Shown piece by piece: positions 17,501 through 62,161 of a stretch of 64,000 bases of DNA. Source of the stretch: Lingula anatina (lineage: Eukaryota; Animalia; Brachiopoda). Position numbers and translations under genes: made by a program. The notes under the pieces are model-generated. The model had not been told where the DNA came from and did not search any database. It was given only the letters and a program-made list of their open reading frames with translations. Position 1 is the stretch's first letter. Each line of letters begins with the position of its first letter. The DNA lies in NCBI GenBank assembly GCA_051362555.1, contig CM120648.1, positions 20,146,587-20,210,586 of the forward strand. The letters are read 5' to 3'.

Positions 17501-20500
17501 CAATTTTAACTTCCAACCAGTATTTCGGAGATTAAACCAATATGAAGTGATCAAGAAACTTCAAAATTAAGTTGTAGTTAATACTAGTGCAGTTGAAGAT
17601 GACAGTCTAGATAATTTAAGGTGATCATATTGAGAAAAATGGCATTTATACTTATTTCAGTTGAGTTTTATACTTATTTCAGTTATGTTTTTACATAATT
17701 TTTCTCAAACTCGATTATCTTATTTTATGTACTGTTGCTTTTTTTTTTTTTTTTTGGTTGCAGTATCAAGGTAACTTTTTCCTATGGTATGCCTGAACTG
17801 GAAGAAGTGCAGATGGAAGAGGAGGAAGATGCTGAAGAAGAGGGAATTAAAGGATCCTGATGATCCAACATGGGACTAAAACATGTCTTTAGAGTAAGCA
17901 GAATTTTAATAAGCTGATATTCACTCCTCTTATATTAGGCATATAGGTGCATGATTTCTCTTTTATCAATTTTTTTTCCAAATTGGCGACACATAATGTA
18001 AACATAATGCAAGACTCTATTTCCTCCGTCAACTGAAACGAGCTAAGCTTTACCAAAGTATTGTGCACTCAATTCTAGAATATGCCTGCCCTGTGTGGCA
18101 TCCAGGACTAACTATAGAGCAATGCAAACTCTAAGAGACTGACCAAACTCGTGCTTTGAAGATTATTTTCCCTGACCTATACTATGATGAAACCCTGAAC
18201 CTGGCATATGTGTACTTTAGATAAACGAAGAGATCTGTGCAAAACTTTCTTTTACAAAATAACTGAATCCTCTGACAAACTGAATCACATCTTTATTGAT
18301 CAATCCAATCGTCTTTTAAGATCAAACAATAGTAACAAAGTGCCACAATTTAAGGCCGACAGATTCTGATGCTCTTTTATTCCGTATGCACTAGTGTTAT
18401 GTTGTCTTTTATCCTAAGTACAATAATTTTAAAGTTCAATTAGCAGTCTTTTAACTCAGTTTTATTCAAGCAAATATTCACTTTATTTTCATTATAATTT
18501 TCTTAACACTATGTACAACTTCAACCCACTGGGTTGCAATCTTAATAAATTATTATTATTATTATTATTATTTTGATTTGCTTTTTTAGACCTAAAGGTT
18601 ATGAGCAACTGCCAGTATGATGTCCTGAAGAAGAGTTTTTTACATGGAAGAGGAACTCCATGGCTCTCCACCAAAAAAAGATGAACTTTTCTTGAGGGTC
18701 CAAAGCGGGGACGAGTTGGATAGTGAGAGACTTTTCCTGACTTTCGAGTGCTGCTTACAGGAAATATTCAGTGAACTCATCTTGCCAATGTGACAAAGCA
18801 TAATCTGCTGACTTCAAACCATCTAGCTCTTACATGTATACTATAATGCAGACAGATTGGAAATCAAGGTGGTCTTTCCTCCCAAACCTAAGTCATATGC
18901 CTGATATTGAGAATAAACCATTTTGGTCCAGCATTTACTTCTTAAATCTAAATGACATCAAATGTATTATGGAATATGGTACTGATGGCATATTGTGATT
19001 TCAACTTGATTTTAAACCGGTGTGTTGTTAGATTTTGTAAGATCACCAGTTGCAGTTTTGTGACTTTGTTACAGCATAAAATTCTGTATTTGGCAAATGA
19101 CTGCATGTCATTTCTTTTAAGACCTACAAAAATCGTTTGAGTGAACACTTGTGCCTGTATTCAATTCTCCACTCAGCCATTATTTAGAATTCATGCAGGG
19201 AAGCTATGCCTGTATTTTTTAAAGAAATATTTATACCTTTCTATTTATTCCCTGCACATCTTGGAAAAGTATGTGTGAATTTCTTACTGATGAAACAATT
19301 TATGTTTGTGTAAGTTGGGTTGGTCCTTTCTTATGACACATCCCTTTGCATGGAGACAGCTCACATGAGTCAATACACTGACAGAGAGGGGGATAATTTG
19401 TTGATCTGCAATCCTCATGGGTCTGCATGTACATCAGACTCTTAACATGATAGCCTGGCTATTAATAAGTCTCTCTCAAAAATGTTATCATACTATAATG
19501 TGTACTGCACAATGTGAAAGTTTGTGAATGCTTGAATAGAAGGCTTATTTATGAAGATGGCATTAATGAGTATGAAAATAATTATGCATTCTAGCTTACA
19601 GAATCTGTGTATGTCTTATTCATTACATGTGACAGGTAATAATAAAGATGATTTGGCCAAATTCCAAACTTATGTAGCAAACTTTGTTTATTCTTGTATT
19701 TTTGCCAAATATAAATAAAAGATGTTTCAATATTTAAACTTTTATTTCATTCATAATCTCTACCCAGTTAATGCTTCATTGATACTGCAGCTTATGCTTT
19801 GTACATAACAATATGTTAATTAATAATAACAGTTGGATAGTACATGTTAATTTACTAAAGGGCTAGTTCTTAGAAAAACATGTTCGACATTAAAATATAT
19901 TCTAAAAAAGTTTTCAAGTATTGCATTAGAATTGAATCTTTGGATGTATTTGACAAATTATAAAATTATTGAAGAGTTGACAATGCACAGAAAATAAAGG
20001 CCTTGAGGCTCTCGCTGATCTCAGTCTTGTCACTTTAAATACATGTACATGGGCATTATAATATAAAACTGTTCACTCGGTTTTGGTAAAAGGTGGTGGA
20101 TCATGTGGTCATCGCTGCAAATTTTTTGTAGCAGTCTTTTACACAACTTGTCACACCGACATTGAAGTGATGCAGTATTGTAAGATTGGAGTGCTTCCTG
20201 GTATGAGTTTTCCAGACATAACTTGAGGCACTGTAATAGTAAAATTACATAAAATGGTTATAAAGAAAAAAATGTATTGATATTATCATAACAGCACTAT
20301 TCTTTAACAAAAATCAACAAATTAGAGGGCATGATCACTACATGATAACCAGCTTATTATAAAGAAGCAAGTCTGATTATGGCAAAAAAAAAAAAAAAAA
20401 AAAAATTAAATTTAAATATCTGCAGCTGCATTAAATCATAAAGGCCACAAGAAGAAATAACATAATCACACATGGTTTCAAAGAACTGATGTAAAAAAAT

Positions 20501-23500
20501 CACACTAATATTCCCCACTTGGAATTAGAATTTTGACTAGCTAATTTACTACAGTAAATGGCACTGTTCACCCTCTAAAATACCAAAGTTTTAAGCAGGC
20601 CCAGGACCCCACGCCAACTAGGGGGGGGGGGGGGTCGGCTTTGCATCCGCGGACCCCCCCCCCCTTTCAAATAATCCTGGATCCGCCCATGTTATACTGC
20701 TAAAATTATTAACATACCTGATCTCTTCACTCGTGCTTGAAGGGGTGTATCACCCAATTCCTCCTCTGAAAGGCTAAAAAATCATTCCTTATAATCATAT
20801 TCATTGACAATATTATTAAATTTACAAATAAGCTAACGTAGTTACGTGCCGTACAAAGAACACCCTCTAACCCCACTAGTACTCGAGTTACATTGTATAT
20901 CTCATGGGATTCCCCTGCGAGAATATGGTGTGAGGTTAGTCTGTAAGTACTGGTAGATGACCACATTGAGCAGAAAAGGGTATTCCTCCTGCTTTACAGA
21001 ACTATACACCTCAGGGGTAAAGTGCACTATCTCGCTTCATATAACTAGTAGTACGTACCCAGTGCGAGTGATTTGGCTGCGAGTGCGTTACCCGAGGAAA
21101 CGTTAATTATTAGCAGTTATCTACGCTTTTTAACTTCCTCTGCCAGACATTTTGATTTCCACTGCCATCTTCCCATTTTAAAGTACTTTTGGTAAATATA
21201 ACTCGCTTACCTGCAAAGATTCGGTGAGCAATTCCTCTTCTCCTTCACGTCCACGCTCACCTTCGAAACGACATGCTGTCTGCATTGTTTACATCTCGTA
21301 TCTGAGTCGAGAAGCCGCGTTATTTCAAACTGTGTCAAGATGGCTGACGCCCGGGGTTCGAAAGTGGACGGTGAATATGATTCTTTATTCGATATTGATT
21401 AAGGCCATTTACCTGCCATTTTATGCTTTACCCATAGCAATTGTTCTCAGATAAGTTAAAAAAGAAGCAATCCATGCACTAAAAAGGCGTTTTTAATCCT
21501 ATTTTTTGTCCCTTTAAGGCATCCGTGGCCGTCACATTAACACATGACCCGTGATACCACTCCCCGCAGTAATCACATTGCAGCATAAATCTACCCTGCC
21601 AGGGTTGACGGCAACTGCAATATACCCGGTCATCGCCCCTCGCCGTGGAGTCGGGCACTGGATTTTTCCTCCAATGTTGTATCCACTGGGGCACCTCCTT
21701 GTCTCGACAAGGCTTCAACCTGTCGTGGTTGGTCACAAAGACTGCATTCCGCACCTTAACGCGGAACAGGTTTGAACTGAGCCGTGCTACAATTAAACCT
21801 GGACCCCTCCATGGTGGGCACAATTTCTTGCACTTCCCCTTGGCTGCCGCGGTATCCAGCACATACACCGTATCTCCCACAGCATACGGTCGCTCGAGTA
21901 TCCTTAGATCGTAGTCCCTCTTCATTCTTTTAGAGGCGACTCTCAGTTTACCCCGAGCCGTCTCGTGGGCTTCCATCAGATCAGTTGCCAACCGTGCGGC
22001 ATAGCTGTCTGAATCTTCAAAATTGATGCTCCTCCGTGGGAACATTAAACCTGCAGGTGCGTTCACCTCCCTCCCCAACATTAACCTGTTGGGAGTGTAC
22101 CCCGTCATCCGGTTTACAGATGCCCTAAGTGCCCCGGCAATCTGTTGTAGACGCAAGTCCCAGCCGTTCTGGGCCTTCTCCGTGAAGCAGCGTACCGCAT
22201 CCATGAGAGTGCGGTTATAGCGCTCTACCTGGCCATTGCTGGCCGGCCGGTACGGCGTAGTACGGGCCTTGTGAATCTCGAGCACAGAACACACTTCAGT
22301 GAACAGCTTAGATTCAAAATTCCTCCCCTGGTCCGTGAAAATCTCCAAAGGGACTCCAAACCTGGAGAAAAATTGATCTATCGCGGCCCGTGCCGTCTCC
22401 TCCGCTGACTGTGATGGTAAGGGGATACATTCGACCCATTTCGTAAATTGGTCGACCATCATGAGTATGTACTCATTCCCCCTGGCAGTCTTCGGCAACG
22501 GTCCCAAGAAATCTAAGTGCACCCTCTCCATAGGCGCACCTGCCTGGAATTGTGTCAGAGGCACTTTTCCCTGCCTTGCAGATTTCTTATTCTGGTTACA
22601 CCGTGTGCACCCAGAAACGAAGTTTTCTGTCGCTCTTCCCATCCCGTACCAATAGAATCGCTCCTTGAGCCGATCCTTGGTTCTTTTCGCTCCCTGATGG
22701 CCTGATGATGGCAGGCAATGATGTAGTCGAATGGCTTCCTGTTGCCATGCCATAGGTAGCACTAACTCTTTATCCTCAGTCTCAGGATCACACCTGTATA
22801 ACAGACCCTCTATGATGATAAACAAATCCCTATCCAGCCAATAGGATTTTAAGGCCTGGCTGCCTAGGAATAAGATAGACTGATCAGGTAGCTTACCACC
22901 TTCCAAGCTCTCCCTGATCACACTCAGGTCTGCATCCGCCTCTTGTGCTGCACGGACCTCCTCCACCGAATAACCCCAACTGGTGAGTCGTGAAGACCCG
23001 TGGTCCTTCACCTTGACCTCACCCTCTGCTTTTCCCTCTTGAAGTGTGGATTCCTTATCACACTCCACCGTGGGAGGTTCATCCTCAGGAGTTATCGGCG
23101 CGTCGCCTGTATCTTTAGGCCCGTGGCCACGTGCACGTCTCCGAGTAGTAACTGGAGCTACTCGAGGTGTTTCCCCTTGACCCCAGGGAATCTGATCTAA
23201 TACCGTCTGTAAGACCTGGAACTCTAGCGTATCCGTGATACACTCTTCCTCTCTGCATACCCCACCGAACACCGTGTGTTCAGAGTACACATTCACTGGA
23301 TCCACCGTTACTGAGCGAACCGTCTTGCCATTGTTGTTTTGCTGACCTTCTGAAATTTCAACGCTGTGGATATCCTCCGTATCCCGGTACGCACCCTGTG
23401 CTAGCGGAATAACATCATCCACTTCCTCCTCGAAACCCACCCAATTCTCGTGGGCCCGCCTGCAATACCCGCATCCACCACATGGTAGAGCATCCAGCCG

Positions 23501-26500
23501 CCCCCTGGTGCCTGCTTTGCACTGCCCCGTGTGAGTCGCTCTAGACAGCGCGTCCGCATTCCCATGTTTGCGCCCAGCGCGATGAGACAACACCATGTCG
23601 TACTGTGAGAGCTCTTCCAGCCATCTCGCCAGCTGACCCTGCGGCTCCCGAAATTTCATCAGCCATCTTAAACTCGAATGGTCAGTCCTAATAGTAAATG
23701 GTTTCCCCAATAAATAGTACCTGAACTGTCGGGTGAATCGTACCACCGCCAAGAGTTCCTTGCGTGTCGTACAATACCTCCTCTGTTCCCTGGTTAATCC
23801 ATAGCTACCGTAAGCTATCACTTTCTCCTGGCCATCTTGTACTTGAATAAGCTCTGCTCCTATAGCAAAGTCACTTGCGTCTGTATCTAAAATGAACTCT
23901 CCGTCCACCGTGGGAACAGAAAGAACTGGGGGAGATGTTAATGCCCCCTTCAATGCCGTAAAAGCCCGTGCTTGTTCCTCACCCCACTCGTAACTCTTTC
24001 CAGTTACAGCGTACAGGGGTGCCGCTATCTCACTGAAGTTTTTAATAAAGGCTCGATGGTAATTAGCCAAGCCCATGAATTTCTCCACATCTTTGGCACA
24101 TGTTGGTGTAGGCCATTCCGTGACAGCCTTTATGTCATGATCAGACATGGAGAGCGTCTCCCCTGTCACTATCCGTCCGAGAAATTCAACCTCCTTCTTA
24201 AAGAAGGTGCATTTCTTTGGCTTAAGCTTCAGCTCGTAGCTGCGGAACCTTTCAAGGGCGTCCCTTAGGTTCTGTAAATGCACATCAAAAGTAGTACCGA
24301 GTACCACTATGTCATCTAGAAATGCCAGCACAGTTTTCCAGGACATTCCACGGAAAACTAAGTTCATTATCCGAGCATAGGTCGCGGGCGCCCCGCACAG
24401 ACCAAATGCCATACGCACATGCTCATAGAGACCATATTTCGTAATGAAAGCTGTCTTTTTCCGATCCTCTTCACGTATGGGCACCTGCCAATACGCAGAG
24501 TTGGCGTCCAACTTAGAAAAATACACATTACCCGACAAGGTATCCAAACAGTCATCGACTAAGGGTAATGGGAACACGTCCTTAGTGGTCACGGCATTCA
24601 ACGCACGGTAATCGATACACCACCTCACAGAGCCATCTTTCTTCCGTATTAACACTGGCGCCGACGCCCAGTCGGAAGTTGACTCCTGAATCACTCCTGC
24701 CTTCAACATCTTCTGTAGATGGGCTTCCTCCTCGCCCACAAAGCACCGTGGCGTTCGCCGCATTCTCTGCTTTATCGGAAGAGCAGTACCGGTGTCTATC
24801 TTATGCTCAACCAATGTGAAGTTTCCTAAATCAAATTCGTCTCTAGCAAACACGTCCTGATACTCCGTGAGTAATCTCGCTAGCTGAACTTTCTGCTGAT
24901 CGTCTAATTCTGCACTGGATTCCTCATACACCTGCTTTAAATGAGAAGGCACGCGTCGCGCCTCGTCATTGACCTCGTCATCGGTCCGTGCCGTGACTGA
25001 CTGCACTGCTGGTGGTATGCAGTGAATGACCTCCGCCCCAGGTGACCTGCCACCCTCCCCTTGGTTACTAGGGAAACATAACGGATCCCCCAGGGGCTCC
25101 CCAGACGTTATAATACCCGCATAGGTAAAAGCCCGCCCCACTTCAGTACCCTTACGCAGTAGTCTGTGCCTCTCACTGGGATTTATGAGGACCATGATGG
25201 GTTCAGACCCCCCATTACGAATAACCCTGGGAGCAAGGAACTTACCAATACCCCCCACCTTTGGCTCTATTACATAACTAGGAAGATCTACATCTAACTT
25301 ACAGGCCACCCTGGCAGCGGAGTAAGGGGGTATCACCTGGCGCCGTGCGACAGTGACCCTGGCCATCTGAGGTGTTCCCTTATCTGAATTAGCGTCTAAT
25401 GTCAGATACATGCCGTCAAACTGCATCACTCCTCTGCCGACATCCACTACTGCCTGTCCTAAGTCCTTCATAATGTCCATTCCCAGCAACATATCCTGTT
25501 CAATGGGGGCTACGTATAGCCTCACAGCATACCACTTATGTCCAATCTTTAACTTAACGGGGCCTGCCGTGAACCCCTGCTTCACCATTTCCCGACCAGC
25601 GGCTAAAAGCTGTACTGAATTCAACCTCTTAGGTTGTTTCTTAAGACTGTTGTAAATGCGGTCTGAAAGTATCGTAACTTGAGCCGCTGTATCCACTACA
25701 GCATTCACAGCAATGTTTCCCACTTTCATCTGAAGTGAATAATCCGCCACTGTTCCGATTTGTCGCACCACTACCATGGGAGCAGGAACCGTGCCCTGTA
25801 TTCCCCATGTGGTAGCCTCATCTGCCCTAGTTGGTGATTCAACGTGACCCGTATCACGGTTGGGCTTGTCTTGGACTAGTGCTGCCCCCTGTCGAGTAAA
25901 TTCTGATTGCACACCCTGTACCTCCGTGGGTACAGTGCACTTAATATCCGAAACTGCTGACTCCTCTGGTACCCTGAGTTTCTTAATGGGCTTATTTATA
26001 ACATCTGGGCCTATGAATCGCCGGATCGAGGGTTGGCCTCCGGCCTCGACCCGGTGGAGTTTCCCACCTGCGGGCACTCCCTTGCAATGTGCCCTTGCCG
26101 ATTGCACTTATAACACAGCACCGAGCTTCCAGTGCTGCCCCGTCCCCAGCCCCGCTGGTTTCCGGGTGCGGCTCCGTGGCCGTAACCGGTAGATGACCTC
26201 CTACTCAGCTCCTGGCGGACATCTTTCAATGCCTTCTCCATTTCCTTGATGGTATCCCTCATCTGTTCCAGCTCTGGAATGTTACCCTCTGCTGTAGGCG
26301 TCACTTGGTTGGCTCGCTTGGCTCCCGGGCGCAATTTCTTTCCCGCATTCTCCATAGTCACTCGCATTTCCCTATGCATCTTAGCCAACTGCATCGCTTC
26401 CCTTAAGGTGGCTGGCTGTCGCATATAAATTGATTGACCTGCCTCTGAATCAATCATGCCCGCGAAGAACCGACTTACAGCCTCTGACTCCACGAATGTC

Positions 26501-29500
26501 CTAGGTAACTGAGCATACGCTTCAGAAGTCAGACGTAGCACCCTGACTCCCCATTCATCCACCGTTTCCGTCTCGCCTTGAGTAGCGTTATGTAGCTGCG
26601 ACCGGACCGTAGCCGGTGTGTCCGTTTCTCCGTAACAGGTCTCCAATTCCTCCATGAGACCTTCATATGAGAGCTTACCTAGCCTGCGTGTGACGTTCAC
26701 ACAACAATCTAGGGCTTTACCCTTCAGGCAGAGGCATAGTGCATCCAGGGACATGTCGCGATCCCAATCCTCCCTCTCTGCCTGTCGTAAGAAAAGCAAC
26801 TTAAAAGCAGCCCAACTTCCGTGTCCGTTAAAAGTTAAGCTCTTAGGAGGATTGACCTTCCTCCTCTCTATTGAGTCTTGTTCTGCCCCTAGCTCCGTGA
26901 GCCGTGCAGTCCTCCTCGAGGCCGCGCCCCGTTTCAATATAGGAGAGCCCTGGAATACAGGGTGTTCGTCCTGGCTACCTCCCTCCACTGGGGTGCTATG
27001 ATACACTAAGTGCCCTGAATTCGATCCACTTCCCACCACTGGAGATCCGTGATCCCCAGGGTGTACGTCTGGAGAGCTGTGACTTCCAGGGTGTTGTACT
27101 GAGAATCCGTGATTCCCAGGGTACATGGCTGGAGAGCTGTGATTTCCAGGGTGCAGTGCTGAGAATCCGTGATCCCCAGGGTGCATGGCCGGAGAGCTGT
27201 GATTTCCAGGGTGCAGTGCTGAGAATCCGTGATTCCCAGGGTGCATGACTGGGGGACTGACACCAGGTGCCATTGGAGGGCTATGATTCCCAGGGTAACC
27301 CGAATAGCTGCCACCACCCCCCGGGCCAACAGCATACCCCTCCCCCCGGACATCCCCGGACATAGGAGTCTCCCTTACAACGCCCCCCCCTGGACTAGGT
27401 GTAAACAATTCAGGGGTGTAAACAGCCCTATCCTGACTCCCGGGACCTAATGCTACCCCACCCCCCATGGGGCTAGGTGTATACGGAACATAAGGACCCC
27501 CCTGCTGAACCCCACTATTTACATTCTTAACTACGTTTTTACCTGGGCTCCGTTTGACAAGTTGAGGCGAATTCGCTCCCTCCAGTCCACTGTCCTCGAA
27601 TAACCTCTTTGGCACCGTGGCCTCCGAGTTACGATGTGCACTCACTTGACCCTCACAGCCTCCTAGCTGCCGCGTGCCACCTCCATGAGGCGCACTTTCG
27701 CTATTGAAAGCGTTGCTCTCCTCCTGAGCAGAAAATCCGAAGAACAGTCCTAAAAGAAACCGGAAAAATCTCCATAGCCAGTTTCCAGATCCTCCTGTCT
27801 CCTGCACCTTCCTTTCCCTGAGTGAAACAGCCGTGCTGCCCACACCCAAGCGCTGATTCGGCTCAAAGTCCACCATATCCAGCGTACGAGGAGCCAGTCT
27901 GCAGCACAAAGCACTTTCCACTTGCTGCACATTTAAATTCCCAAATTGTTCCCTCAATTCGGCTATTTTGAACACTTGGTCTTCCGTGAGACCTGGAGTC
28001 CGCATTAACTCATTCACATTTGCATAATTTATGAAAATCCTGGCGTGCGTCGCCATTTTGTTTTTTCCTTGGCGCACGTGCCGCCGAAAATTCCAGAAAA
28101 CTCCTTAAAACTTGTAAGAAACTACTGTAAAAACACTCTAAAAACACTCGCCAGACCGTGCTGGGGTTTCCTCATATACAATATATACAACAATAAACAT
28201 TAAAATGGTAGGGTAGCGTGCCTGAGTGCGGAGTTCAGCTCCGTGGCTGAAAAACTCCTCAGCAGAAAAATTCGTAACTTTTCTGCCCAAATGTGGCACA
28301 AATCCGGCCCGGCTGCCACCAATATAGAAACCGGGTTGTACGTTACAACTGGCCTATGAATAAGTAAAGTGCCTACCTTTTCTGGATAGGCATCCAAGTC
28401 CTCGTTTTCTTGTTAATTCTCTCTTCACCACAACTTAGCACCATGCGCTTGAGCGCGCCATGCTCAACTCCAACGCTCTCAACTTCTAACTAACTACTAC
28501 GCATGCGCCGTGACACGCTTCCGGGTCATGCAATGACCCCTCGGCACTACAAATATAAGCAAATTTAAAAGACATACTGGTATATTTCAATTCACAGAGT
28601 TTTACTTGATTTCTGTTTCATGGTAAACATGTATGTATGTAACACACATTCAGTTTCAAGTTTTGGCATTTTAGGGGATGTTACTTGTGCCAGTTTTTTA
28701 TATTTTAGTTTTATATTCACTATGGAGATTCATGTGTGTTTACAATGAAGTTGAAGTTAACTGCCTAGCTATAATTATGTGACTTTGTAACACAACTGTG
28801 CTTCAATTTTCAAGACTTACATATTACACAGGACACTTGTAACTAAAGGTACTTTAGTAAAATCAGGAAAACTTTGCAGTCCATTATGTTGTTCATGTTG
28901 CTTTGCAAGGGGGCGTGCCAGACAATTAAGCTGATTACAACGACTGAGCCCGAGTGTGATACTCCTCTGAGATAGATTGATCCTGCTACGATAGTTTCTA
29001 TTCTGAACACAGTAAGCCTCTGTTGTTGTAAAGCATTTATTGATATTATGTATATTTTTCAGATTTTACATCCTAGGCCTGTATGTGAACCTTGACCTGG
29101 ACAATCTTACAGACAAAAATAGAAAAGTCACCTGAAATTGCACAGGCCAATTCATCAGATTCAGATGTGAGCACCAACTTTGTAATGCCTGGAACACTTC
29201 CACATAGAAGAAAAAAGGTTTACCTTTTTTTCATTTGTTTCTTTTTCTATCATGAAATTCTGGTAGCTACAATCATGCATATTTGATTTCCTTTTTTACA
29301 CTTATACAATATGTTTGATCAGAATATTATATAGTAATTGTTCTTATACAGCAATTAACATGAGGTTAAAATATGTTTAATACATTTTCTTTTGACAGCC
29401 TGTCCTGCCATCTTCAGGTAGACGCAGTAGTGGATATCCTGGCAAACCTTTATTGGACTTGGAGCCACCTTGGGACAATCCCCCATAACAAATATGCATC

Positions 29501-48831: not shown

Positions 48832-49022
48832 TGTGTACTGTGTACCTTGATAACCCTAGCTGTCTCTTCCATGTCTCCCAGGTCAATGTGTGTGTGTGTG
48901 TACTGTGTACCTTGATAACCCTAGCTGTCTCTTCCATGTCTCCCAGGTCAATGTGTGTGTGTGTGTGTGTGTGCGTACTGTGTACCTGGATTACCCTAGC
49001 TGTCTCCTCCATGTCTCTCAGA
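48832..49022. repeat. Three tandem copies of an exon 3' end plus splice donor, separated by (GT)n
   Basis: ACCCTAGCTGTCTC(T/C)TCCATGTCTC repeated three times. Confidence 0.85.
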
Positions 49023-52000
49023 TCAGCTACTGTGTACACATGGTTTGGCTCAGGTGCCGGAGATAACTTGTTACACTCTGCGATGAACTGAAGCCGTTAT
49101 TATGGAAAAAATGCAACAGACACTCAATTGTTCAAATTGCAATACCAATAAGTAAATTACAGAGCAGCTTTTGTAAAGGAAAATAAAATCGTTAATTTTT
49201 TTAAACAATTGTAGTGTTTTTGTCACTGCCAAGAGCATCCTGGGATGTCTGCTGCGCATTTGGGGACTGCGCAGGGGCGCTCACATATAAACTAACACCA
49301 GCCCATGTGACGCCCCAGATCCCGGTAGATCTTCACCAGTGAAGAAGTACAAAGCTCCTCCAAGTTGACGTACTCTCACAGCATAGTGCCACACATTAAC
49401 AGAAGGACCAGGCAATACTCTCAGTAAGTACCAGAAGTGTTTGTTTCTGCTATTGAATTAGAGTAAAACACTTTATTGGCGACGAGGTACACACGACCTC
49501 TTAGCATAAAGCTGTTGCAAGCCATTAGGTAATTTCTCCTTTGTTCGACGCCATATTGAAAAATTCGGCGGGCGGGGGTCAAGTTTTTGAAACTTCACAG
49601 TAAGTTCTTAACTTTCGGCCGTAAAGTTACCGCGTAGGGAACGGGGAGTATTCCTTTTTGGTTTGTTTACTTTGACATTCAGTAAAACAGCACTTATTGA
49701 GAAATTGCCTGTCGTAAGGGAGACGTTGTTCTCGTACATCTGTTCAAGGCACGTGCAATAGCAATATTGTACTAACCATCTTATTTATTGCATTTTTAAC
49801 TATTTGTTATCACATTTCAATTTTTGTCCTTTTCTGGTACAATTGGATTTAATAGTTGGTTGTTTTACTGGCACAGGGTTAATTTAAATTTTGTTTATTC
49901 CTGGAATATTGATATTAGTTATTTAAACGATTGATATATTCTGTGTACTGGGATAAACTTAATCACTTATCTGTAAATTATTAGTTTCATAAAAATTTGA
50001 TTCTAGATTTATAGATTTAGTGAAAATTTATCTTTCTCTTTTTGAATTTCCATTGGTGGGGTTTTTTCTAAATCTTTCCGGTGTTGAGTGCCAGTTAATA
50101 ACTTGCTATTTTTTCTGATTAATTGTGTTAGATTTTACATCAACACAATGGCAACTTCTTCCCAGTTGGTAGATGTCAATTCTGCTACATTGGAGGATTT
50201 AGTTGATGTGCCAGGAATTGGTCAAAAGCGTGCTGAGAAAATTTTATCTGTGAGAGAAAGAGGTATACGCCTTAATCAAAATATCTTACAACAACTTTTT
50301 GGTCAAACTATATCATCTAAAATTATGCCCTACCTTCAGTTTGAGTCTTCTCATATAAAAAGTCAGGGTGGGGCAAAACCTAAATCAAAAAGGCATACTT
50401 CTACTTCCGCAGATATTTCGAAGCATGCTAAATCTTTGGATCTTGGACGTGATTCGTTTAGGCGCTCTCTCTTTTTTCCAACAGAGGGAGAACCTATTAG
50501 AACACTCAATGATGGTGATGAAATTTTGGAATTACAGCAAAAGATTTCTGATTTAAAACTAAAACAAGCAGAAATCAAACAAAAAAGTAAGGAAGTGCAG
50601 AAAGCAGCTTCCATATCTCCAAAAACATACAGGAGATTGCATACATTACCACATTCTGAGAAATCTAATAGGTCACGAGAAAGTCGTGGCGTCAAATCTG
50701 TCTCACATAAGAGATCATCTTTGCCTGTAGATTTTCTTGATGCACATTCTCTTGGAGCACGCATGCATGATACCACTCAGAATAGGGGTCACACTTCTTT
50801 TCAGGGTACTTCGGTGCATGGTGCACATTTCTCAGGTAAAAAGGTTTCCTCATCTTTTATTCCCATACCTTCTGGTATTGGGAATATTTCCTCTCATCAC
50901 CATTCTCGTCTTTCTACTCCGCAGTCTGAATTGTCTACTACCTCATCTGAGGAATCACTTGATTCTACAGCACAAGGTGAAAGTTTTCATAAAAAGCACT
51001 CTTTTTCACACTTGTCCAAGGGTAAAAAAACAACACACACCCTTCCAGATGAAGTGGACTTTTCACATCCACCCTTTATTTCGCACGGTCAAGCACAGAA
51101 AATCGCACCATCTTTATCAGGCAATAAACACCCATTTTATTTAAGACCTGAACCTCAAGGTCGTCAGAGACCTGTTTACTACATAACCGGAGAAGAAGAT
51201 GATGACGCTCCCATTTTTATACGGCCAACAAAATCTTTTAAAATTAAAAAAGATAGGGGTGATCCAAAAGATCTACCCAAAAACTTACATTTTGATGGAA
51301 AAAATAATTGGGAAGCGTTCAGACATCGCTTTGAAAGTTATAGGGATGTAAATGAATGGTCTGACAACCAGTGTAAGGATTACCTTTCCTGGAGCCTTGA
51401 GGGTAGGGCCTTAAGCTTTTTTACAAAATTTACTCGTGATTGGGATAAATATTCCTATCAGCAAATCATGAGTAAATTAGAGTCTGTTTTTGGTACGGAG
51501 TTCCTACCAGAGACGGCTCGGGCTGAATTCCATCAATCAGTCCAACTACCTACTGAAACACTCAATGATTGGGCTTGTCGCGTAATGAGTTTGGTCACTG
51601 ATGCCTATCCGGATCTCCCAGATTCTTTCACTGTTAAAGAGGCTATTACTAAATTCTGTCAAGGCTGCCTAGATCCGGAAGCAGGTAAACATGCCCGTCT
51701 TTCACATCCCATTTCCATGGAAGACGCCATCAATAAAGTTCGCTACTATCAGCATGTCTGTCAGGATTCCTCTGATACCAAAAAGCGTGGGAGAAAATCT
51801 CGTGACGATTTGGTTATTAATCAGGTGGAACCCGAGCAGTCTGTTGATGATGGTGAACCCCCATCAAAAATTGAACAACTGTTGGAAAGCATTTTAGAAA
51901 CACAAACCCAAATTTTAAAACCCCCTGAACAACCCTCAGTCAATTCCCTCGAAATTAAATCTTTAGAAGACCTTGAAAAAATAATAGAACAAGTCATTTT

Positions 52001-55000
52001 AAAACACAAATCAATTGAATCGGCCTCTCAGTCAAAAAGACCTGTACAGACTTGTTATTTTTGCCAAAAACCCAACCATTTTAAGAGGGATTGTCCAAAG
52101 TATAAATTTTGGTTAAAAAAGCAAAAAGCAAAATTGGCCCAATCCAACAGTGTAGATTACAATTTAAAAGCCTAGGGGCCAGGGTAATTGACCGTATCCC
52201 TGGTACCCCTTCCCTCCACGGTCAATCAGTGACTCAAACCATGCCTAACTCCGTCATGCATGAAAGAGTGAATCTTGCTAGTGGTTCTACTGCCTCTACT
52301 CACTCCAGTCAATCCAATATCCAACAATATTCAACCCCCATTATGGAGTCCCAGCCTTGTAACACCCTAGGCAGTATGCCTTTCCATAATGGCAGGGGGA
52401 GTGGTGGTAGTAGTTCTGCTTATAACGAGACCAGACGTCTAGATCCATCTATCCGTTCTGGAAACTCTAGAGATCCCTCTAATGTAAGGAGAAGGCGGGT
52501 TTACACAAACCAAAGTGCACAGCCCATTCCGCGTGTTCAGCAGATTTCCATCGGGTCTTCATTCATTCGACTTAGAGTGGGTCAGACAGTGGTAAATGCT
52601 AGATTAGACACTGGGGCGGAAGCTACAGTGCTCTCTTCGAAAGTTTACAACAGTCTGAAAAACAAGCCGGCTAAACTCGAAAATTGTAAAATGAGATTAG
52701 CTGGGAATAACTCTATGTTGAATGGCTTTTTAATTGAGCCAATCTCCATGCAAATTGGGTCATACCAATTTGCTGAGCAGGTTTATGTCGCCCCAATTCA
52801 TGATGAAATGCTCCTTGGTCATGACATCCTCCAACACATGGGTGCTATCTTAGACCTCCGGGATAATGCGCTTGTTATAAATGGTGAGCGGGTTCCTGTT
52901 ACTACTGAAATATCCAAAGGCCAAAAACCAACAATTGCTAGAGTAACCTTATCTCAAAAAGTAGTGGTTCCTCCAAATTCAGTAATGCGGGTTTCTTGTA
53001 GTATTAGTGAGCCCTTAGAAGAATACATTGTAGAATCAGTCAATGAGGGGGGAGAGTTACTCATTCCACGTACATTGCAATCTAAAACAGCAAGGCCAGT
53101 AGTATGTATAGTAAACCCCACTAGCCAATTTAAAAAACTCCCTAAAGGCAAAAACATCGCCAGCGCATGTGAGATTGGTCAAATTTTAGAAAGCAATGAA
53201 GGTTTAGATTTCTATCCGCAGACTGGTTCCAGTGCTTCATACGCTTTAGCCGGTGAAACTGGAAACACCACTGCTGAAGAAACTAAACACCCGATCAATA
53301 ATTCACTTGAACCTTCAGACCCAACTACCTCAGTATACGCTTTAGTCGTTGCTGTAGGTGGTAATACTGAAGTAAAAGCAAGTGAATTCAATGCCCAAAA
53401 TCCAAGTAGAGCCCTGTCCATCCCTTCTCAAGTATACGCTTTAGTCGGTACTAATAGAGAAAAGACAGAACTCGATCTTGGAAGTCCTATATGTCCCTCA
53501 CTTAGAGACCAAAATGATACATCTGCAGTAGACACTTTAGCTGATGCTGATAGTAGTAGATTGGTTCTCAATCATGGTGGGACATATCCCGAACAAGACA
53601 TACTTGTTAATAGGTCCCTTTCTAATGGTGTTTGCATTCAATGTGCTACACTTAAACAGGGGGGGACTGTCCCCAAAACAAGTATTTTTCACAACAATGA
53701 CACACTTGAGAGACTGCCTGTGTTAAAGGGCCCTCGTACTTCGCGTACTTTTTCCATCCGCGGCAGGTCAGTTCTTGAAAGTGAAAACCCGAATTGTGAC
53801 TCACTCGATACACAGTTAAAGAACCTGAATCACTGCTGTCTGTGTGGTGTTTATTTGGGAGATTCGACTGTTAATTCGAGTGAATTTCGCGTAAATTCTG
53901 TAACCGAGCAGCAAAGTCTACATGATGCAAAGTCCTGGGAAAATGCAGACTCAATCTTGTCAAAGATACCTGATCATGTAAAATCAGTTTTTGAAACATC
54001 TAAACAAAATTTAACTGCAAGTCAGCAATGTCATCTTGCTCAAATTCTCATAGAATTTCAAGACGTTTTTGCAAAAAATGAATATGATCTGGGTAACTTT
54101 GATGCCATTGAGCATGGCATTGACACTGGCCAAGCTCAACCCATAAAACTACGTATGCGGAGGACTCCTGCGTGTTTTGTTGAGGAAGAGGAAGCGCATC
54201 TAAATAAGATGTTAAAGGCTGGTGTAATCCAGGAATCGACATCAGACTGGGCTGCAGCACCGGTGTTAATCAGAAAACGCGATGGTTCGGTGCGTTGGTG
54301 CATAGATTATCGCGCACTGAACAACGTAACTGTCAAGGATACATACCCGTTACCTCTAATGGAAGATTGTCTGGATACACTTTCTGGTAAGACCTGGTTC
54401 TCCAAGTTGGATGCCAATTCAGCGTACTGGCAGATTAAGGTTAAAAAGGAAGATCGTAAAAAGACAGCTTTCATTACGAAGTATGGTCTGTTCGAGCATG
54501 TGCGCATGGGCTTCGGTCTTACTAACGCGCCCGCGACGTATTCACGTGTAGTCAATCTGTTGATGAGAGGGTTAACCTGGAAAACAGTTTTGGCTTTCTT
54601 GGACGACATACTGGTAATGGGTGAATCCTTTGATAGTCACATCATAAACCTTAAAGAGGCATTGGGGAGATTCCGCTTGTACAAAATAAAACTCAAGCCA
54701 AAAAAGTGTTTATTCTTTCAAACTGAAATTGAGTTCCTAGGGAGAATTGTTTCACAAAACTCCATCAAAATGAATCCTAGGGACATAAACACAGTTATAT
54801 CTTGGCCAAAACCCTCCAATACTAAAGAGTTGGAAAAATTTCTAGGGTTGGTTAATTACCACAGGGGTTTTATTAAAAACTTTGCAGAACTCTCACAGCC
54901 TCTTTATAAACTCACGGGCAAACGCCCATTCATCTGGGGTCCAGACCAAACGAGAGCATTCGAAGCATTAAAGAGAGCATTAACCACACCACCGGTTTTA

Positions 55001-58000
55001 GCACTCCCTAATAACAGTGATCCTTTCATCTTGGACACGGACGCTTCTGAAAATGCTATTGGTGCAGAATTACTCCAAGTTCAGAACGGGGAAGAAAAAG
55101 TAATTGCCTATGGTAGCTACGTTCTAACTCCTGAACAGCGGAATTACTGTACTACTCGTAAAGAACTTTTGAGTATCGTGAGATTCACGCGTCAGTTTAA
55201 GTATTACCTTTTAGGCCGAGATTTTACGGTACGAACAGACCACTCAAGCTTAACTTGGTTACTTCGGTTTAAGGAGCCACAGGGTCAGCTTGCTCGTTGG
55301 ATAGAAGAGCTTTCACAGTACCATATGATTGTGCAACATCGGCCAGGAGTGAAACATCAAAATGCAGATGCACTGTCACGGAGGCCAGACAACTTAACAC
55401 CATGCTCTGCATATGTGGCAGGAATTAAACCAGAGGACTTGCCTTGCGGGGGATGCCATTATTGTACTAGAGCCCACACATCCTGGGGAAGTTTCTTTAC
55501 AGACGTAGATGAAGCAGTGGGGCTAACCAGGACTAAAGATAACAATACTACCCGCGTAAAGCAGCTCAATTCTGTCGCACATTTATCTCACACTCAAACA
55601 GGTCTGGATACCCTAGATACATCCCTCAATAAAATGGAAAATTTCCAACTCTGCTTCAGTATTCTTGATACTCTAGTAGCCTTTTCCGTCGGAGAAAACT
55701 CTACTGATCCCCAACTATCTCGGATAGAGATAGTGAGGAACGGAAATGAAATTGGGATCAATACTTGTGGAACACCATTAAGTTACCCAAAAGTAGATTC
55801 TAGAATTCCTTGCTGTTGGGGTTTTTCTATTCAGTATCTTAAAACTGAGCAAGAAAATGATGTAGAGCTAAATTTTCTCAGGGAATGGTTGCTATCTGGG
55901 GAAATCCCAGATGAGGGACTTCTTTTCCGATCTAGTCCTATTACAAAAAATTACTGGATGAACAAAGAATTATTTCGCTTGGTTCAAGGTGTAATTTTCT
56001 TTAAAGACCCAAAAGACCAGGAATTAAAGCTGGTCATTCCAGAAAGTTTAAAGGGGAAAATTTTGGAATTGCATCATGATATCCCATCTTCAGGTCATCA
56101 GGGGGTAGCTAGAACCAAGTTAAAAATAAAAGAAAAATTCTTTTGGTATCATCTAAGTAAAGATGTCACTAGCTTTGTATTAAGTTGTGATGTCTGTAAC
56201 CGTAATAAACGGAAGGGCTGTTATGGAAGAGTTCCTATGACTGAGTATCAATCCAGCTCACCAATGGAACGCGTTCACATAGACTTTATGGGACCGTTAC
56301 CTAGAACAACCCAAGGAAACGAGCATTGTTTAGTGATGGTGGACCAGTTTACCAAATGGGTCGAGTGTGTGCCTTTGCCTTCTCAGAAAGCAGAAGTAAC
56401 AGCTAAAGCTGCTATTGATAGTTTCTTTTCCAGATTTGGATATCCTTTGCAGATCTTTTCTGACCAAGGTAGAAACTTCGAGAGTACGCTTTTTACTGCA
56501 TTGTGTCGCGCATTGCACATTCACAAAGCCCGTACTACACCGTATAGACCCTCAGCTAACGGCCAAGTTGAACGATATAACCGAACCATCATGGAGGCTG
56601 TCAGGTGCTTCGTTGGTAAACAACAACATGAATGGGATAGGTATATCCAACAAATCGCTGGAGCGTTAAGGTCATCGGTAAATAGGGATACTGGTTTTAC
56701 TCCTAACATGCTTATGCTGGGTAGGGAGGTTAACACCCCTGCTCAATTAATGTTTCCCATTATAACATCTACGGCCCAAGATTATGGTGAATATGTTTCT
56801 AAATTCATTCTTAAAACCCAGCAGGCTCACCAAATTGCTAGGGATAGGTTAAAAACAACAACCAAAAGAATGAAACGGGATTACGACCTCAAAATCTTAT
56901 TAAGGCCTTACGTTGAAAAAGATCTTGTGTACATCATGGACACAGCGGTAAGTAAGGGTAAATCTCGTAAACTAAGTTCACCATGGAAAGGCCCTGGGGT
57001 TATTCAGGACAAACTGTCAGCCTATCTGTACAGGGTTAAGCTGAAGAATGCTGTTTTTGTTGTCAATCATGACAGATTAATGCCGTGCAGAGATAGGAAA
57101 CTTCCTGCATGGATTTCAGCATATTTGGCCTCTCCTTCAGTAAGTACTCAGGAGGATATAAATGACACACATAATTATTGTGTGTGTAAACAACCATATG
57201 GAGGTAGGTTTATGATCCAGTGTGACTATTGTGATGAGTGGTATCATGGATCGTGCGTCAATATTACACCTTCTGATGCTCTTGATATCACTAAATATAA
57301 ATGTTCATCATGTATAGCTTCTGGTCAAAACTAAAATCCATTTTTTATATCCTTTCAGATATGGCAGCTGGCAGGAACATAGTGGATGAGTTGGAGTTCT
57401 TACTCCCCATGAAGCAGGTCCCTTTCATTGAGGGGAGGGAGATGGTAACCGAGTTGGTTGCACTCTACCCATTACCTGATCAGCAACAACAAATAAGAGA
57501 CTGGGTGGCGAAGGCAGCTAAAGTCCAAAAGGCCAAGCTGAAAGGGAAGGACCATGGGTATGCTCTGCACTGGCTAAAGGATGTGGCTTGGGAAATGAAG
57601 GCCCAGAATCTAGCTTCCGTATCGTGGCTTAAATCGGCTGTGATTAGACCACCACCTGGACCTGTGTCCAAACCCAAAGCGGGTCCCGGCAAGGGCTCTA
57701 GCTCCGCTAGTGTACTTGCTGGTCCGTCGAGGGATATTAGGGTGGGGGTTGATCCCACAGTTCAGATTCATTCCTACGAGGTCAAGGGTAGTGATGGCAA
57801 TAGTGAGAGTGTAACAACATCTGCACCTGTTATTGTCAAATCGGAGCCAATGGAGGTGGAGACAGTAGCTGAGACCCCAGAAGCCGGTGAACCTGTGATC
57901 ATTGATCTCACGGATCCGGTGTATGAGGAATCATGTGAATGTCAGAAACCCCTTGTCTCTGATATCACCCCTTGTCCAGGAACTAGTTCTGTGGAGATAG

Positions 58001-61000
58001 TGACCCCTGTCGTGTCTGATAGTTATGAGTGTATTCCATCTACTTCTCAGGTTGCTAGTATGAAACCTCCGACTGGGTTAGGTGATATTCCATCTACATC
58101 TACGCCCAACCCGTTTGCTGTTGCCGATCCAGAGCCGAGAGTTATCAAACCCAAGGCAAGGAAGGGGAAGCGCAGTAATAAAGGTAAAAGACGGCAGCAG
58201 GCTGACGCTTTGGGTAAGGGCCCTGAGATCTCTGATGGGTCAGTCGGGGTTGGCCACTTATCAATTGTGTCTAACTTCACAACCGGGGAGTCTCGCAAGA
58301 GAACTGGGCAAACATCCTTGCCTTCTGTTCCCGTTTCTGGACCTAAAAAATCTAAAATCGGGTATCAGGGGGTGAGATGTTTGATCCCCGGGTGTGGAGA
58401 AATATTCACCAACAAGAAGGCGCATGATATGCAGGTCCATCTCCCGTTGATTTTTGATGAGTCGCTTGGTTCCGAGCCTGGAGTTTTGGATTTGAGGGTT
58501 AAGGCGCTGGAAATGGTGAACATCTGGCGGTTTGGACAACCACATTCGTTAATAACGCTTTGTGAGTATGTGGCTTCGCTAGAGGGAGATTTATTCTCTC
58601 TCCGTGACACGGAGTTCACCCAGCCGCAGTTGGAATCTATGAAGGCGTTCTGTAAATTCGTAGGGGCAACTTGTCCTGAAAAATTTACCTTAAATCCCAT
58701 TAATTCTGTCGGTTGTCTGGTACACTGGAAGATTCTTATGCTGATCTCGAGTTCCCTCAAGGATTCGCAGAGAAAGCTCTGGATTGAAAAGTTTACCGTG
58801 CCGGGGGTATCTAGGAAGATGGTTAAGGAGGTAGGTGGACGTGTTCTGGCCTTTGATAGTCATTATCATTTGGACAGGACTCTGAAAGCTGCCAAATTGC
58901 CATTAACTGGTACTTTGGAGTCTCTGAAGCCTGTTGTAACTGTGGCAAGGGGTAAGGAGGTGGAGTTCGGTGGTACGGTAGCCGTGTATTGTGACCCTGA
59001 GACATATCCCTCTAAGGGTGTGTTATCTAAGATCTCCAGGGGCACATACATTGCTATCGGGATGCACCCTAAAAAGGCCAAATTGCCTCTGAAACAGCGA
59101 ATGCATGGTCTGAAGTTGCTCCGGGAATTAGTCAGGTTGCCAACTGTCGTTGCCCTGGGGGAGATCGGTTTAGACTTTACCGAACCTTCCGAAAGATGGC
59201 AGGATCAAGTGGAATTGCTTTACGACATTCTTCCGCTCCTGGAGAGAAGGCACGTTTTGGTCTTACATTGCCGAGGGATGGTGAATGGTGATTGTGTGTA
59301 TGTGTTGAAATCGATGTTACATCATCTACGTCTTCATCATATACCGCAGAACCACCCCATCCATTTACATTGTTTTTCCGGCACTAAAATGTTGATGGAG
59401 ACATGGCTAAAACAGCAGCCAAACACCTTTTTCGGTTTCACTAGGCTGGTTTCAACATTTTCCCCAGCACAAAAGGAGGCACTGAAGGCTGTTGATGACT
59501 CTCGCCTTCTGCTTGAGTCTGATGCACCATATTTCAGTCGCCCCGGTGAGTCGATATCAACGCCTTATTCTCTTTATGAGACGGCTGAACTAGTAGCTGC
59601 CGCTCGGGGAGTTTCTGTCGAGCATGTCTTGAGGGTGACTCATAAAAATGGGCTCTCTCTGTACGGGCATGCCAATCAGAGCTCTTCATAGATTCTGTCC
59701 TATGAAGTATTAGATTTTACATCAATACAACATAGCATTAGGTGACTTCCTTTTGTGGGGTTGCTTGAACAGGGCTGGAGGTGAATTGCTAGTTACTCGT
59801 TGCCTGGAATCTATGCTAGCTGATTTCGTGGTTTCATCTATATACTCCAACATTAAGGGTACAGTGAATACCTACAGTTACTCCTCTATAAGTTAACGTC
59901 TTTTTGTTTAGTACTTTTTCCTTTATCCAGCTATCAGCAAATTTACTAAACACCAAATTGGTGTAACTAAGTCATTCTATTTATTAATTCAGTCTGTCCA
60001 CCAGGTTGGTGTGTGTGCATTAATTTTGTTTGTCTGCACTGGGAAAGTGTTCTTGTTTATTTAAAATTTTTGGCCTTTTTCACACCGGGAAGGTGTAATT
60101 ATTATCATAAAGATTCAGTGTCTGGTCTATACATCAAAATGATGTTAAATTTCAAATATTATAGCATAATACAAATGTCAATACATAAACTACATAAATT
60201 TTGTAGTTTTTTAAATTTTACAGACACCAGGATGGTGTACTGTAGTAATTATAGTTGGTTTCACACCAAAACAGGTGTCTCATGTTATTATGGTTATCCA
60301 GCACTGATAATTGACCTCATTTTTTATATTTTTACAGTGACCCATAAATAAACGGGTTAATAGTTTGTTTAAGCTGATGGACTGGAGATTTCTATATTCA
60401 GGTATTTTTCCTTTATGTACTTTGGACTGGGAAATCCTTATAGATCTTTCTTTCAGTTATTTTTAATGGTGAAATTTTGCAATTTTGAAATGAACTGAAG
60501 TAGTTCAATATGGCAATATATCTGTATTTTTGGAGAAAATTCAGTGGTTCATTGGTTTGATTCTTTTTGTTTGTACTAAAAATCTGAGAAAATGTCATGT
60601 TTCGACTATCTCAGTATTTCTGGTTTTTTCTTTTTGCTCAGTTTAATGAGGAGTGGTATTCAAAGAGTCAATTTTTTGGGCTCTGTATCTTGATGTTTGG
60701 TGAGAGATTTTACATCATCACCACTTTATTTCGTCTCTATTAAGGAAACCGTAAAGAAGAGATTTTACATCATTCTGGTTCTTTTAGAGAAATTACTTTC
60801 GGTGTTCATGGTAGATATTGTATCACCATGGGACATAACCTCCACAGGGATGATTCTGTTGTAGAGTTTACTACCTGGAGTTCTTACAACACTTGTAGTG
60901 ATACTTGCTAGGAGATCTTACATCACTAGTAAAGTATACTGTTCTAGAAGATCTTACATCGCTAGTATGGTTAACTCTTGAATATGGCCTTGTGGAGAAC

Positions 61001-62161
61001 CAGGGGTCTACTCTAAATTCTATCAATCTGGAAATGCAGAGTTACTGGGCACTCTGTATATAGTCTGTACATTGTCTGTACATATCTCCTCTGTCTGTTA
61101 TCTAGTCTGAGCTGGACTCATTCTTTTTATACTGGCATGGGATTTGTATATATGTAAATATCCTTTAAGGGATTAACTCTGCAGGACCTTGTATTTTTCT
61201 ATTTGGCATGTCACTACAGGGGGTAGGGGGGATAGATTTCATTTTCATTTTTCTTTTCTCTATTTCAACTTTAGTAGACCTCTGGGAGATTTCTTTGTAT
61301 ATACTCTGTCCTTTTTCAATAAAACTGGGGGGAGTGTAGTGTTTTTGTCACTGCCAAGAGCATCCTGGGATGTCTGCTGCGCATTTGGGGACTGCGCAGG
61401 GGCGCTCACATATAAACTAACACCAGCCCATGTGACGCCCCAGATCCCGGTAGATCTTCACCAGTGAAGAAGTACAAAGCTCCTCCAAGTTGACGTACTC
61501 TCACAGCATAGTGCCACACATTAACAGAAGGACCAGGCAATACTCTCAGTAAGTACCAGAAGTGTTTGTTTCTGCTATTGAATTAGAGTAAAACACTTTA
61601 CAATGTTTGTTCGAAAGGAATGGAGGCAAAGCGATAAAAGCATTAGATTCAAAGATTTCAGTATTGGAACAATACAAAATGCAATGCAAAATCGTTAATA
61701 AAGCATATTTTCTAAGATACGAAGTTCAAAGCTGTTATTTGAAGGTTGACCTTCCCTCACGTGTCTTAATTTATTACCGGTAACTGACCTTTTTTAGGAG
61801 GGTTTTCTCTGCGCGCCGTCAAAACAAGATTTGCTCCCTTCTTGGCGAAATGGTACGCCACCTGTTCTCCAATTCCAGAGGACGCCCCGGTAATGAGCAC
61901 TCTCTTGCCTCTCACCATGGCTTATATCAGCCTATTATCATTTTGATTTCTGTTATAAATCTGGAAATTTAATAAAGCATTGGGATTTTTTTTTTAATTC
62001 ATGTGTAATGGCAAAGTTTCATGTGGCTTTATCTTGGGCAGACGAAGTAGATTGTGTTTATTATTTTGAAGGCAAGGAAAGAATTGGTACGAAATTCATG
62101 CGTAAGCACTCCTTTTTGCGGTTATAAATATGTGTTTTCTGGTTGTGTTTACGTTATTTAG

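Follow-up and report, generated by a model that had tools for sequence, protein, structure and literature searches.

A Gypsy retrotransposon lineage with a TatD-type gene between pol and the 3' LTR, represented by two elements in Lingula anatina

TatD-carrying Gypsy elements and their third reading frame

The window analysed here, a whole stretch of 64,000 nucleotides of contig CM120648.1 of Lingula anatina, held two long terminal repeat (LTR) retrotransposons with a TatD-type gene (Table 1). Element 1 occupied positions 49210–61600. The initial annotation had described it as a Gypsy element with identical LTRs, a target site duplication (TSD), gag, pol and an intronless third open reading frame (ORF3), and all of this proved real. 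That inventory had overlooked element 2 on the minus strand (13380–28551; identical LTRs, gag, pol with PHD finger, ORF3), the helix-hairpin-helix (HhH) domain of gag and two further folded domains of ORF3. Beyond element 1, reverse transcriptase (RT), integrase and PHD finger followed by TatD were present in element 2 and in a third element at metagenome locus L001, comprising gag, pol with PHD finger, ORF3, a purine tract and an LTR. The architecture was observed in these three elements, and the existence of a TatD-carrying lineage is close to certain. The proposal of a retrotransposon lineage with its own TatD gene was borne out by the three gag–pol–ORF3 elements, by congruent trees and by dispersed loci in bivalves.

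The LTRs of element 1 started with TGTAGT, finished with TA and were identical across 266 bp. The alternative TSD ACAAT also fits if the LTR is one base shorter at its end. DNA contigs of run X1 agreed letter for letter with the element 1 region over stretches of 4729 and 1740 bp; an assembly artefact was rejected because of these long exact matches. The end of another run X1 DNA contig (loose end 49201) led from the 5' flank into sequence resembling the 3' flank with a single CAAT; this empty site lies in a related copy of the repeat surrounding element 1. Pfam matches in gag were HHH (E=2.7e-7) and zf-CCHC (E=1.2e-5), and pol was 99.6% identical to L. anatina LOC106152279. The PBS-like motif after the 5' LTR of element 1 resembles tRNA-Ser, a candidate primer. 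Elements 1 and 2 showed the LTR pair with TSD and the order protease, RT, RNase H and then integrase of Ty3/Gypsy elements. The further Ty3/Gypsy characters, namely gag with capsid and CCHC knuckle, primer-binding site (PBS-like motif) and polypurine tract, were also present, with weak capsid matches. Element 1 is a young and intact Gypsy retrotransposon. The DNA-binding HhH domain opened its gag at 50160–50264 and was also present in element 2 and L001.

At the DNA level, parts of pol were about 65% identical between elements 1 and 2, and the C-terminal 439 columns of the ORF3 alignment gave 31% identity, which places element 2, by sequence, in a family other than that of element 1. The ORF3 of element 2 was 95.9% identical to Lingula LOC106170426. 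An insertion nested in element 2 is not part of the retrotransposon; run X1 DNA contigs lacked it, with a joint 16342–21514. It is presumably Kolobok-like. It was transcribed and spliced (joint 20230–20718, 128 reads in run X12) and seems to contain further inserts. Each of the three elements (1, 2 and L001) had a canonical slippery heptamer in the −1 overlap of gag and pol and, closely preceding the ORF3 ATG, a stretch rich in pyrimidines with AG. In the metagenome pattern scan, three of 80 loci belonged to the family: L001 as full element, L002 as a frameshifted ORF3 piece and L003 as a fragment. The other 77 were ordinary TatD. Pattern scans of viral sequences yielded no member of the ORF3 family.

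The hidden Markov model search for TatD in the C-terminus of the element 1 ORF3 gave TatD_DNase as the sole Pfam match of the protein (aa 498–768, E=7.8e-34). All six TatD motifs of the initial annotation were recovered: DSHYH at 499, GMHP at 567, GEIGLD at 600, VLH at 634, HLHCF at 668 and LESDAPY at 718. The domain was assigned to class II because of its HxH motif (scheme of PMC10085689). The structure model comprised confident domains at aa 7–100, 338–480 and 495–772 and a disordered linker bearing basic clusters. In the TatD region (aa 495–772), the predicted local distance difference test (pLDDT) score was mostly above 90, and the 16 best listed Foldseek rows were TatD-family or uncharacterised amidohydrolase-type proteins with E values from 1e-12 to 3e-9. 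The C-terminal domain is, as modelled, a TatD TIM barrel.

Conservation was assessed in an alignment of 41 ORF3s, mostly full-length members from the top 54 of 79 matches. H501, H503, H569 and E601 were invariant in all 41, H636 and H670 were kept in 40 of 41, and E719 and D721 in all 39 rows covering them. Column identity in the linker was about 21%. A basic cluster lay ahead of the finger, which is of the C2H2 type, in 32 of the 41. Profiles of the finger domain and the N-terminal domain matched members of the ORF3 family only and no TATDN2-labelled protein. Neither the N-terminal helical nor the finger/helical domain had a Foldseek match at E<=0.001. In a further fold search with these two domains, the best Z was 6.5, to generic helical bundles, and aa 338–480 were barely covered. 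The Atlas gave a single unnamed cluster at 0.75, at most a lead. No membrane-like segment was found in any of the 41 ORF3s (best 19-residue hydropathy below 1.8). An identity of ORF3 as env was rejected on this ground and because TatD was the only Pfam match. A DEDDy exonuclease was likewise rejected, as Pfam and fold both gave TatD.

Table 1. Features of the two TatD-carrying elements, in positions of the window
Feature	Position	Strand	Basis
Element 1, left TSD copy CAAT	49206..49209	.	flank comparison; empty-site loose end in run X1
Element 1, 5' LTR, 266 bp, TG...TA	49210..49475	+	100% identity with 3' LTR
Element 1, PBS-like TGGCGACGAGG	49477..49487	+	one base after 5' LTR
Element 1, gag, 675 aa: N-terminal HhH, capsid-like region, CCHC knuckle	50148..52175	+	Pfam
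Element 1, candidate −1 frameshift heptamer TTTAAAA in gag–pol overlap	52163..52169	+	canonical heptamer in 3/3 elements
Element 1, pol (frame of 1742 codons) with protease, RT, RNase H, integrase and C-terminal PHD finger	52106..57334	+	Pfam
Element 1, pol PHD finger	57179..57313	+	Pfam
Element 1, pyrimidine tract and CAG, candidate splice acceptor	57341..57358	+	two bases ahead of ORF3 ATG
Element 1, ORF3, 776 aa, intronless, four-part layout	57361..59691	+	Pfam, alignment, structure model
ORF3 N-terminal helical domain, aa 7–100, family-specific	57379..57660	+	pLDDT about 93–97
ORF3 C340-C345-H355-H360 finger and helical domain, aa 338–480	58372..58800	+	ligands kept in 40–41 of 41 rows
ORF3 class II TatD, aa 498–768: H501, H503, E601, H636, H670, E719, D721	58852..59664	+	
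Element 1, polypurine tract	61321..61334	+	sequence before 3' LTR
Element 1, 3' LTR, 266 bp	61335..61600	+	identical to 5' LTR
Element 1, right TSD copy CAAT	61601..61604	.	flank comparison
Element 2, 5' LTR, 229 bp, TG...TA, TSD TATT	28323..28551	-	LTR comparison; empty-site joints
Element 2, PBS-like TGGTGGCAGC after 5' LTR		-	sequence
Element 2, gag with CCHC and a weak match to HhH	26011..28056	-	Pfam
Element 2, pol, open through integrase, broken in PHD finger by nested insertion	21479..26107	-	
Nested 5.2-kb insertion, TTAA on both sides, imperfect inverted ends	16347..21513	.	DNA contigs without insertion
Element 2, ORF3, 807 aa, four-part layout with TatD	13828..16251	-	Pfam E=2.4e-33
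Element 2, 3' LTR, 229 bp	13380..13608	-	identical to 5' LTR

Both TatD elements sit in other abundant repeats (48900–49209 and 61601–61900; 12900–13379 and 28552–29000), and empty-site forms of their insertion sites were present in runs X1, X18 and X19. The window held a further LTR element of another Gypsy type at 41535–46837, with identical 115-bp LTRs and gag–pol across three frames, lacking a third ORF and TatD. Two tandem arrays were present. The array at 37600–39900 consisted of about 50 copies of a 39-bp unit and was open in several frames; the array at 1270–2740 had a period of 146 bp and at least nine copies.

Family size, linkage to pol and origin of the TatD domain

An ORF3 profile search covered 1.84 billion representatives, with clusters formed at 50% identity. 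At least 150 ORF3 clusters scored above 312 bits, and the finger domain was present in 127 of the 150 listed. Among 132 representatives covering all six metal ligand sites, 114 kept all six. Degenerate active sites were seen in P0118, P0121, P0192, P0218, P0219 and others, and P0121 had a doubled finger/helical domain; such relatives may be pseudo-nucleases or domesticated genes. Named members came from Lingula (five gene models), Pecten, Argopecten, Dreissena, Saccostrea, Ruditapes and Mya. In Mya, one 90% cluster of ORF3 sequences comprised 13 loci (seven full-length) spread over 11 scaffolds; another comprised at least 14 entries from Dreissena on seven scaffolds, and the third nine from Pecten on eight. 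The initial annotation had named occurrence of TatD only in single copies with neutral dN/dS as evidence against its proposal; the Mya and Dreissena copies are dispersed. Some ORF3 copies, for example in Dreissena and Pecten, were annotated as host TATDN2 or TatD exonuclease. A low-copy gene outside mobile DNA, as expected of a host TATDN2 orthologue, does not describe ORF3, given its location inside LTRs and the multicopy Mya and Dreissena loci. The ORF3 and pol proteins P0011, P0129, P0322, P0342 and P0386 were filed under names of bacterial metagenome-assembled genomes (Thiodiazotropha, Sedimenticola) and are probably host DNA in symbiont bins.

Indirect links of ORF3 to pol were also found outside the three elements. 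The gene model P0227 joined an element-2-type integrase to ORF3, a Nucella gene model spanned pol with PHD finger into the N-terminal domain of ORF3, and one cluster mixed six ORF3 and eight pol members among 14 listed. A search for longer proteins gave 15 matches, all TATDN2-like, and no full pol–ORF3 fusion; none of 223 proteins had a gag or pol match. Six of 44 ORF3 contigs of 3–50 kb were equal in size to one of 87 pol contigs, with 0.32 such pairs expected by chance from shifted offsets (maximum 4). A seventh pair shared the contig size of 659,658 bp. Eleven pol/ORF3 pairs were compiled in this way, three from the elements seen and eight from contig-size matches and the cluster link.

The comparison of RT and TatD trees suggested in the initial annotation was carried out with these 11 pairs. 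Six of eight splits were common to the pol and ORF3 trees, a value reached in none of 10,000 permutations, and the two conflicting splits had bootstrap values of at most 55. The Mantel rho between pol and ORF3 was 0.57 (8 of 10,000), and ORF3 evolved about four times faster than pol. In a pol tree of 115 rows, restricted to relatives of the query and built after nine of 124 rows were dropped, the paired pols were scattered over much of the tree and two large subclades had no paired member. Because the trees share six of eight splits, a single old capture of TatD followed by co-descent of ORF3 with pol is likely. The TatD-carrying Gypsy lineage is large and likely ancient. In the P0406 pol of the same lineage, integrase and PHD finger were separated by a Tpt1/KptA RNA 2'-phosphotransferase domain (PF01885), a predicted second enzymatic cargo in the pol-PHD clade.

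The origin of the domain was examined in quick trees of ORF3, animal TATDN2 and bacterial TatD under two models; P0042 (same as L001), P0062 (short) and 69 of 87 bacterial-type locus ORFs were dropped. The ORF3s formed one clade beside animal TATDN2, with Shimodaira–Hasegawa-like approximate likelihood ratio test support of 96 and 92, and of 98 without the long row P0052. P0056 fell inside the ORF3 clade. ORF3 and TATDN2 jointly were separated from bacterial TatD with a support of 99. Nesting of ORF3 in lophotrochozoan TATDN2 was not rejected (approximately unbiased test, AU, p=0.09). TATDN2-labelled proteins scored 125–200 bits, and one 86 bits, with the TatD-part profile; human TATDN3 and TATDN1 scored 56 and 47 bits with a different profile, that of the whole ORF3. 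E601 and E719 of ORF3 matched the TATDN2 glutamates E593 and E705, whose spacing of 112 was found in three of five TATDN2 proteins checked. The trees place TATDN2 as the nearest cellular relative of the ORF3 TatD, and a TATDN2-type host gene is its likely donor class.

Candidate functions of ORF3

Human TATDN2 degrades RNA in R-loops and has minimal activity on plain RNA–DNA duplexes; the glutamates E593 and E705 are required for R-loop resolution (PMC10711561). With TATDN2 as nearest relative and acting on the RNA of R-loops, such a role is favoured over gap repair or cDNA removal, and the tentatively preferred reading, possible but far from secure, is that the ORF3 TatD was captured once from a TATDN2-type gene and would act as a nuclear nuclease on R-loop-like structures of element RNA. 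The sequence features suggest the following course. A −1 frameshift in the gag–pol overlap would yield gag–pol, and ORF3 would be produced as a separate protein from spliced RNA. It would enter the nucleus via its basic clusters, and the finger/helical domain would bind the substrate. By analogy with TATDN2, the TatD domain might then strip RNA from R-loop-like structures of the element's own RNA, which could leave the integrated copy open to transcription and spare it damage or silencing marks; it could also clear three-stranded intermediates of cDNA maturation. Among the candidate roles, the one in R-loops would rank first, followed by DNA end-processing or repair, a counter-silencing RNase, a scaffold and neutral cargo.

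Several observations weigh against this reading. Coverage of element 1 by RNA was thin: three runs, each sampled in part, gave 93, 1 and 137 reads, and no splice joint to ORF3 was found in these runs at their low depth. The reads over both ORF3s were mostly antisense in run X12, which is stranded because the reads of the nested-insertion intron ran 128 one way and none the other. The RNA runs sampled lend no support to ORF3 expression in those samples. The reads on element 1 were mostly 90–99% identical and therefore stem from other copies or alleles. At least one ligand was lost in 18 of 132 ORF3 representatives, one contig held an element-2 relative without most of ORF3, near-identical copies varied alike in the TatD part and the linker (0.039 vs 0.041), and eight of the 11 pol/ORF3 pairs were inferred rather than seen. 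R-loop binding of human TATDN2 requires its own N-terminal region (PMC10711561), and the N-terminal domains of ORF3 are unrelated to those of TATDN2, so that specificity may have changed.

There are several rival readings. ORF3 might be DNA-directed: as a 3'–5' exonuclease on single-stranded DNA or an apurinic/apyrimidinic (AP) endonuclease, it could trim the ends of cDNA, dispose of abortive cDNA or assist in the repair of integration gaps. TATDN1, TATDN3 and three E. coli paralogs have such activities (PMC10085689), and in this lineage gag also bears a DNA-binding HhH and integrase a PHD finger. The DNase activity of TATDN2 itself is low and its AP-endonuclease activity very weak (PMC10711561), and a free exonuclease on single-stranded DNA would presumably endanger the element's own cDNA, making this role rather unlikely. 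The fact that human TATDN2 cleaves hairpin RNA (PMC10711561) fits an RNase directed against small-RNA precursors, structured RNA or a nascent-RNA silencing scaffold. The antisense reads over both elements may reflect RNA-based control, and a silencing-related role was proposed for the ORF3s of rotifer elements, which are DEDDy proteins (PMC5408684). This counter-silencing function, which overlaps the R-loop reading and is inseparable from it by sequence, is considered unlikely.

The losses of ligands, in some representatives with several changes, would also agree with a barrel acting chiefly as a scaffold that binds nucleic acid or metal while the two family-specific domains, conserved and confidently folded, do the work. 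Retention of the six ligands in 114 of 132 representatives across roughly 35% domain identity makes such a scaffold improbable. Neutral cargo, meaning a copy of host TATDN2 that was transduced recently or is adjacent by chance, would account for the lack of excess conservation of the TatD part among near-identical copies and for the relative with ORF3 deleted, and it agrees with the AU result for nesting in TATDN2. Against it stand ORF3s only about one-third identical whose frames are open and whose active sites are intact, the number of clusters (at least 150 at 50% identity), the congruence with pol and the domains missing from host TATDN2. Chance adjacency and recent transduction were rejected, and neutral cargo is very improbable.

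The R-loop reading can be extended to a broader picture, doubtful as a whole, in which an ancient and widespread animal Gypsy clade would use a TATDN2-derived nuclease, together with the integrase PHD finger and the gag HhH, to erase R-loops or nascent-RNA scaffolds that mark the provirus, and many invertebrate 'TATDN2-like' genes would be copies of this clade. The annotations noted above indicate that some invertebrate TATDN2 or TatD exonuclease entries are transposon genes, which would inflate gene-family counts. Young intact elements and well over 100 natural variants provide material for asking why a retroelement should need a nuclease on top of RNase H and integrase, and whether control of R-loops belongs to the conflict between host and transposon.

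Relation to known systems

The standard third ORF of env-bearing Gypsy elements, the errantiviruses, is env, a fusion glycoprotein. The TatD elements share with errantiviruses the position of the third ORF and a candidate splice acceptor just before its ATG. They differ in that ORF3 has no signal peptide-like or membrane-spanning segment and is predicted to be a soluble nuclease. A TIM-barrel nuclease hereby joins the short list of enzymes that replace env in LTR retrotransposons.

Animal TATDN2, the sister or parent clade of ORF3 in the trees, resembles it in the class II HxH motif, in both essential glutamates and in a C-terminal TatD domain behind a long N-terminal region (PMC10085689, PMC10711561). 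Unlike TATDN2, ORF3 is intronless, multicopy and inside LTRs, and the two are about 30–37% identical; the two extra N-terminal domains set ORF3 apart from TATDN2-labelled proteins. The mollusc Gypsy clades MolGy1–16 have the same host range and are defined by RT/RNase H only (PMC6238403). TatD, PHD and a third ORF did not occur in the available main text of that survey, and the TatD-ORF3 lineage probably corresponds by RT to one MolGy clade.

The initial annotation knew of no such architecture. Judged from literature listings, no description of a retroelement with a TatD ORF3 was found in the open literature, Repbase, Dfam and subscription journals being outside this scope; a mention of TatD in a squid paper referred to host TATDN2 in a figure legend. 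An enzymatic exonuclease ORF3 as such is already known from bdelloid rotifers, where the LTR elements Juno and Vesta encode a DEDDy 3'–5' exonuclease (PMC5408684). Like the TatD elements, Juno and Vesta carry a non-env enzymatic ORF3 with intact catalytic residues between pol and the 3' LTR, and both enzymes fall in the 3'–5' exonuclease class, on the TatD side by sequence only. The folds differ, DEDDy in the rotifers and a predicted TatD TIM barrel here, and TatD was not mentioned in the available text of PMC5408684. In rotifers, the DEDDy ORF was acquired on at least two occasions and exchanged among retroelement classes (PMC5408684). The TatD cargo looks old and co-inherited rather than sporadic: in contrast to the rotifer ORF, the TatD ORF3 keeps pace with pol and occurs in brachiopods, bivalves and a gastropod.

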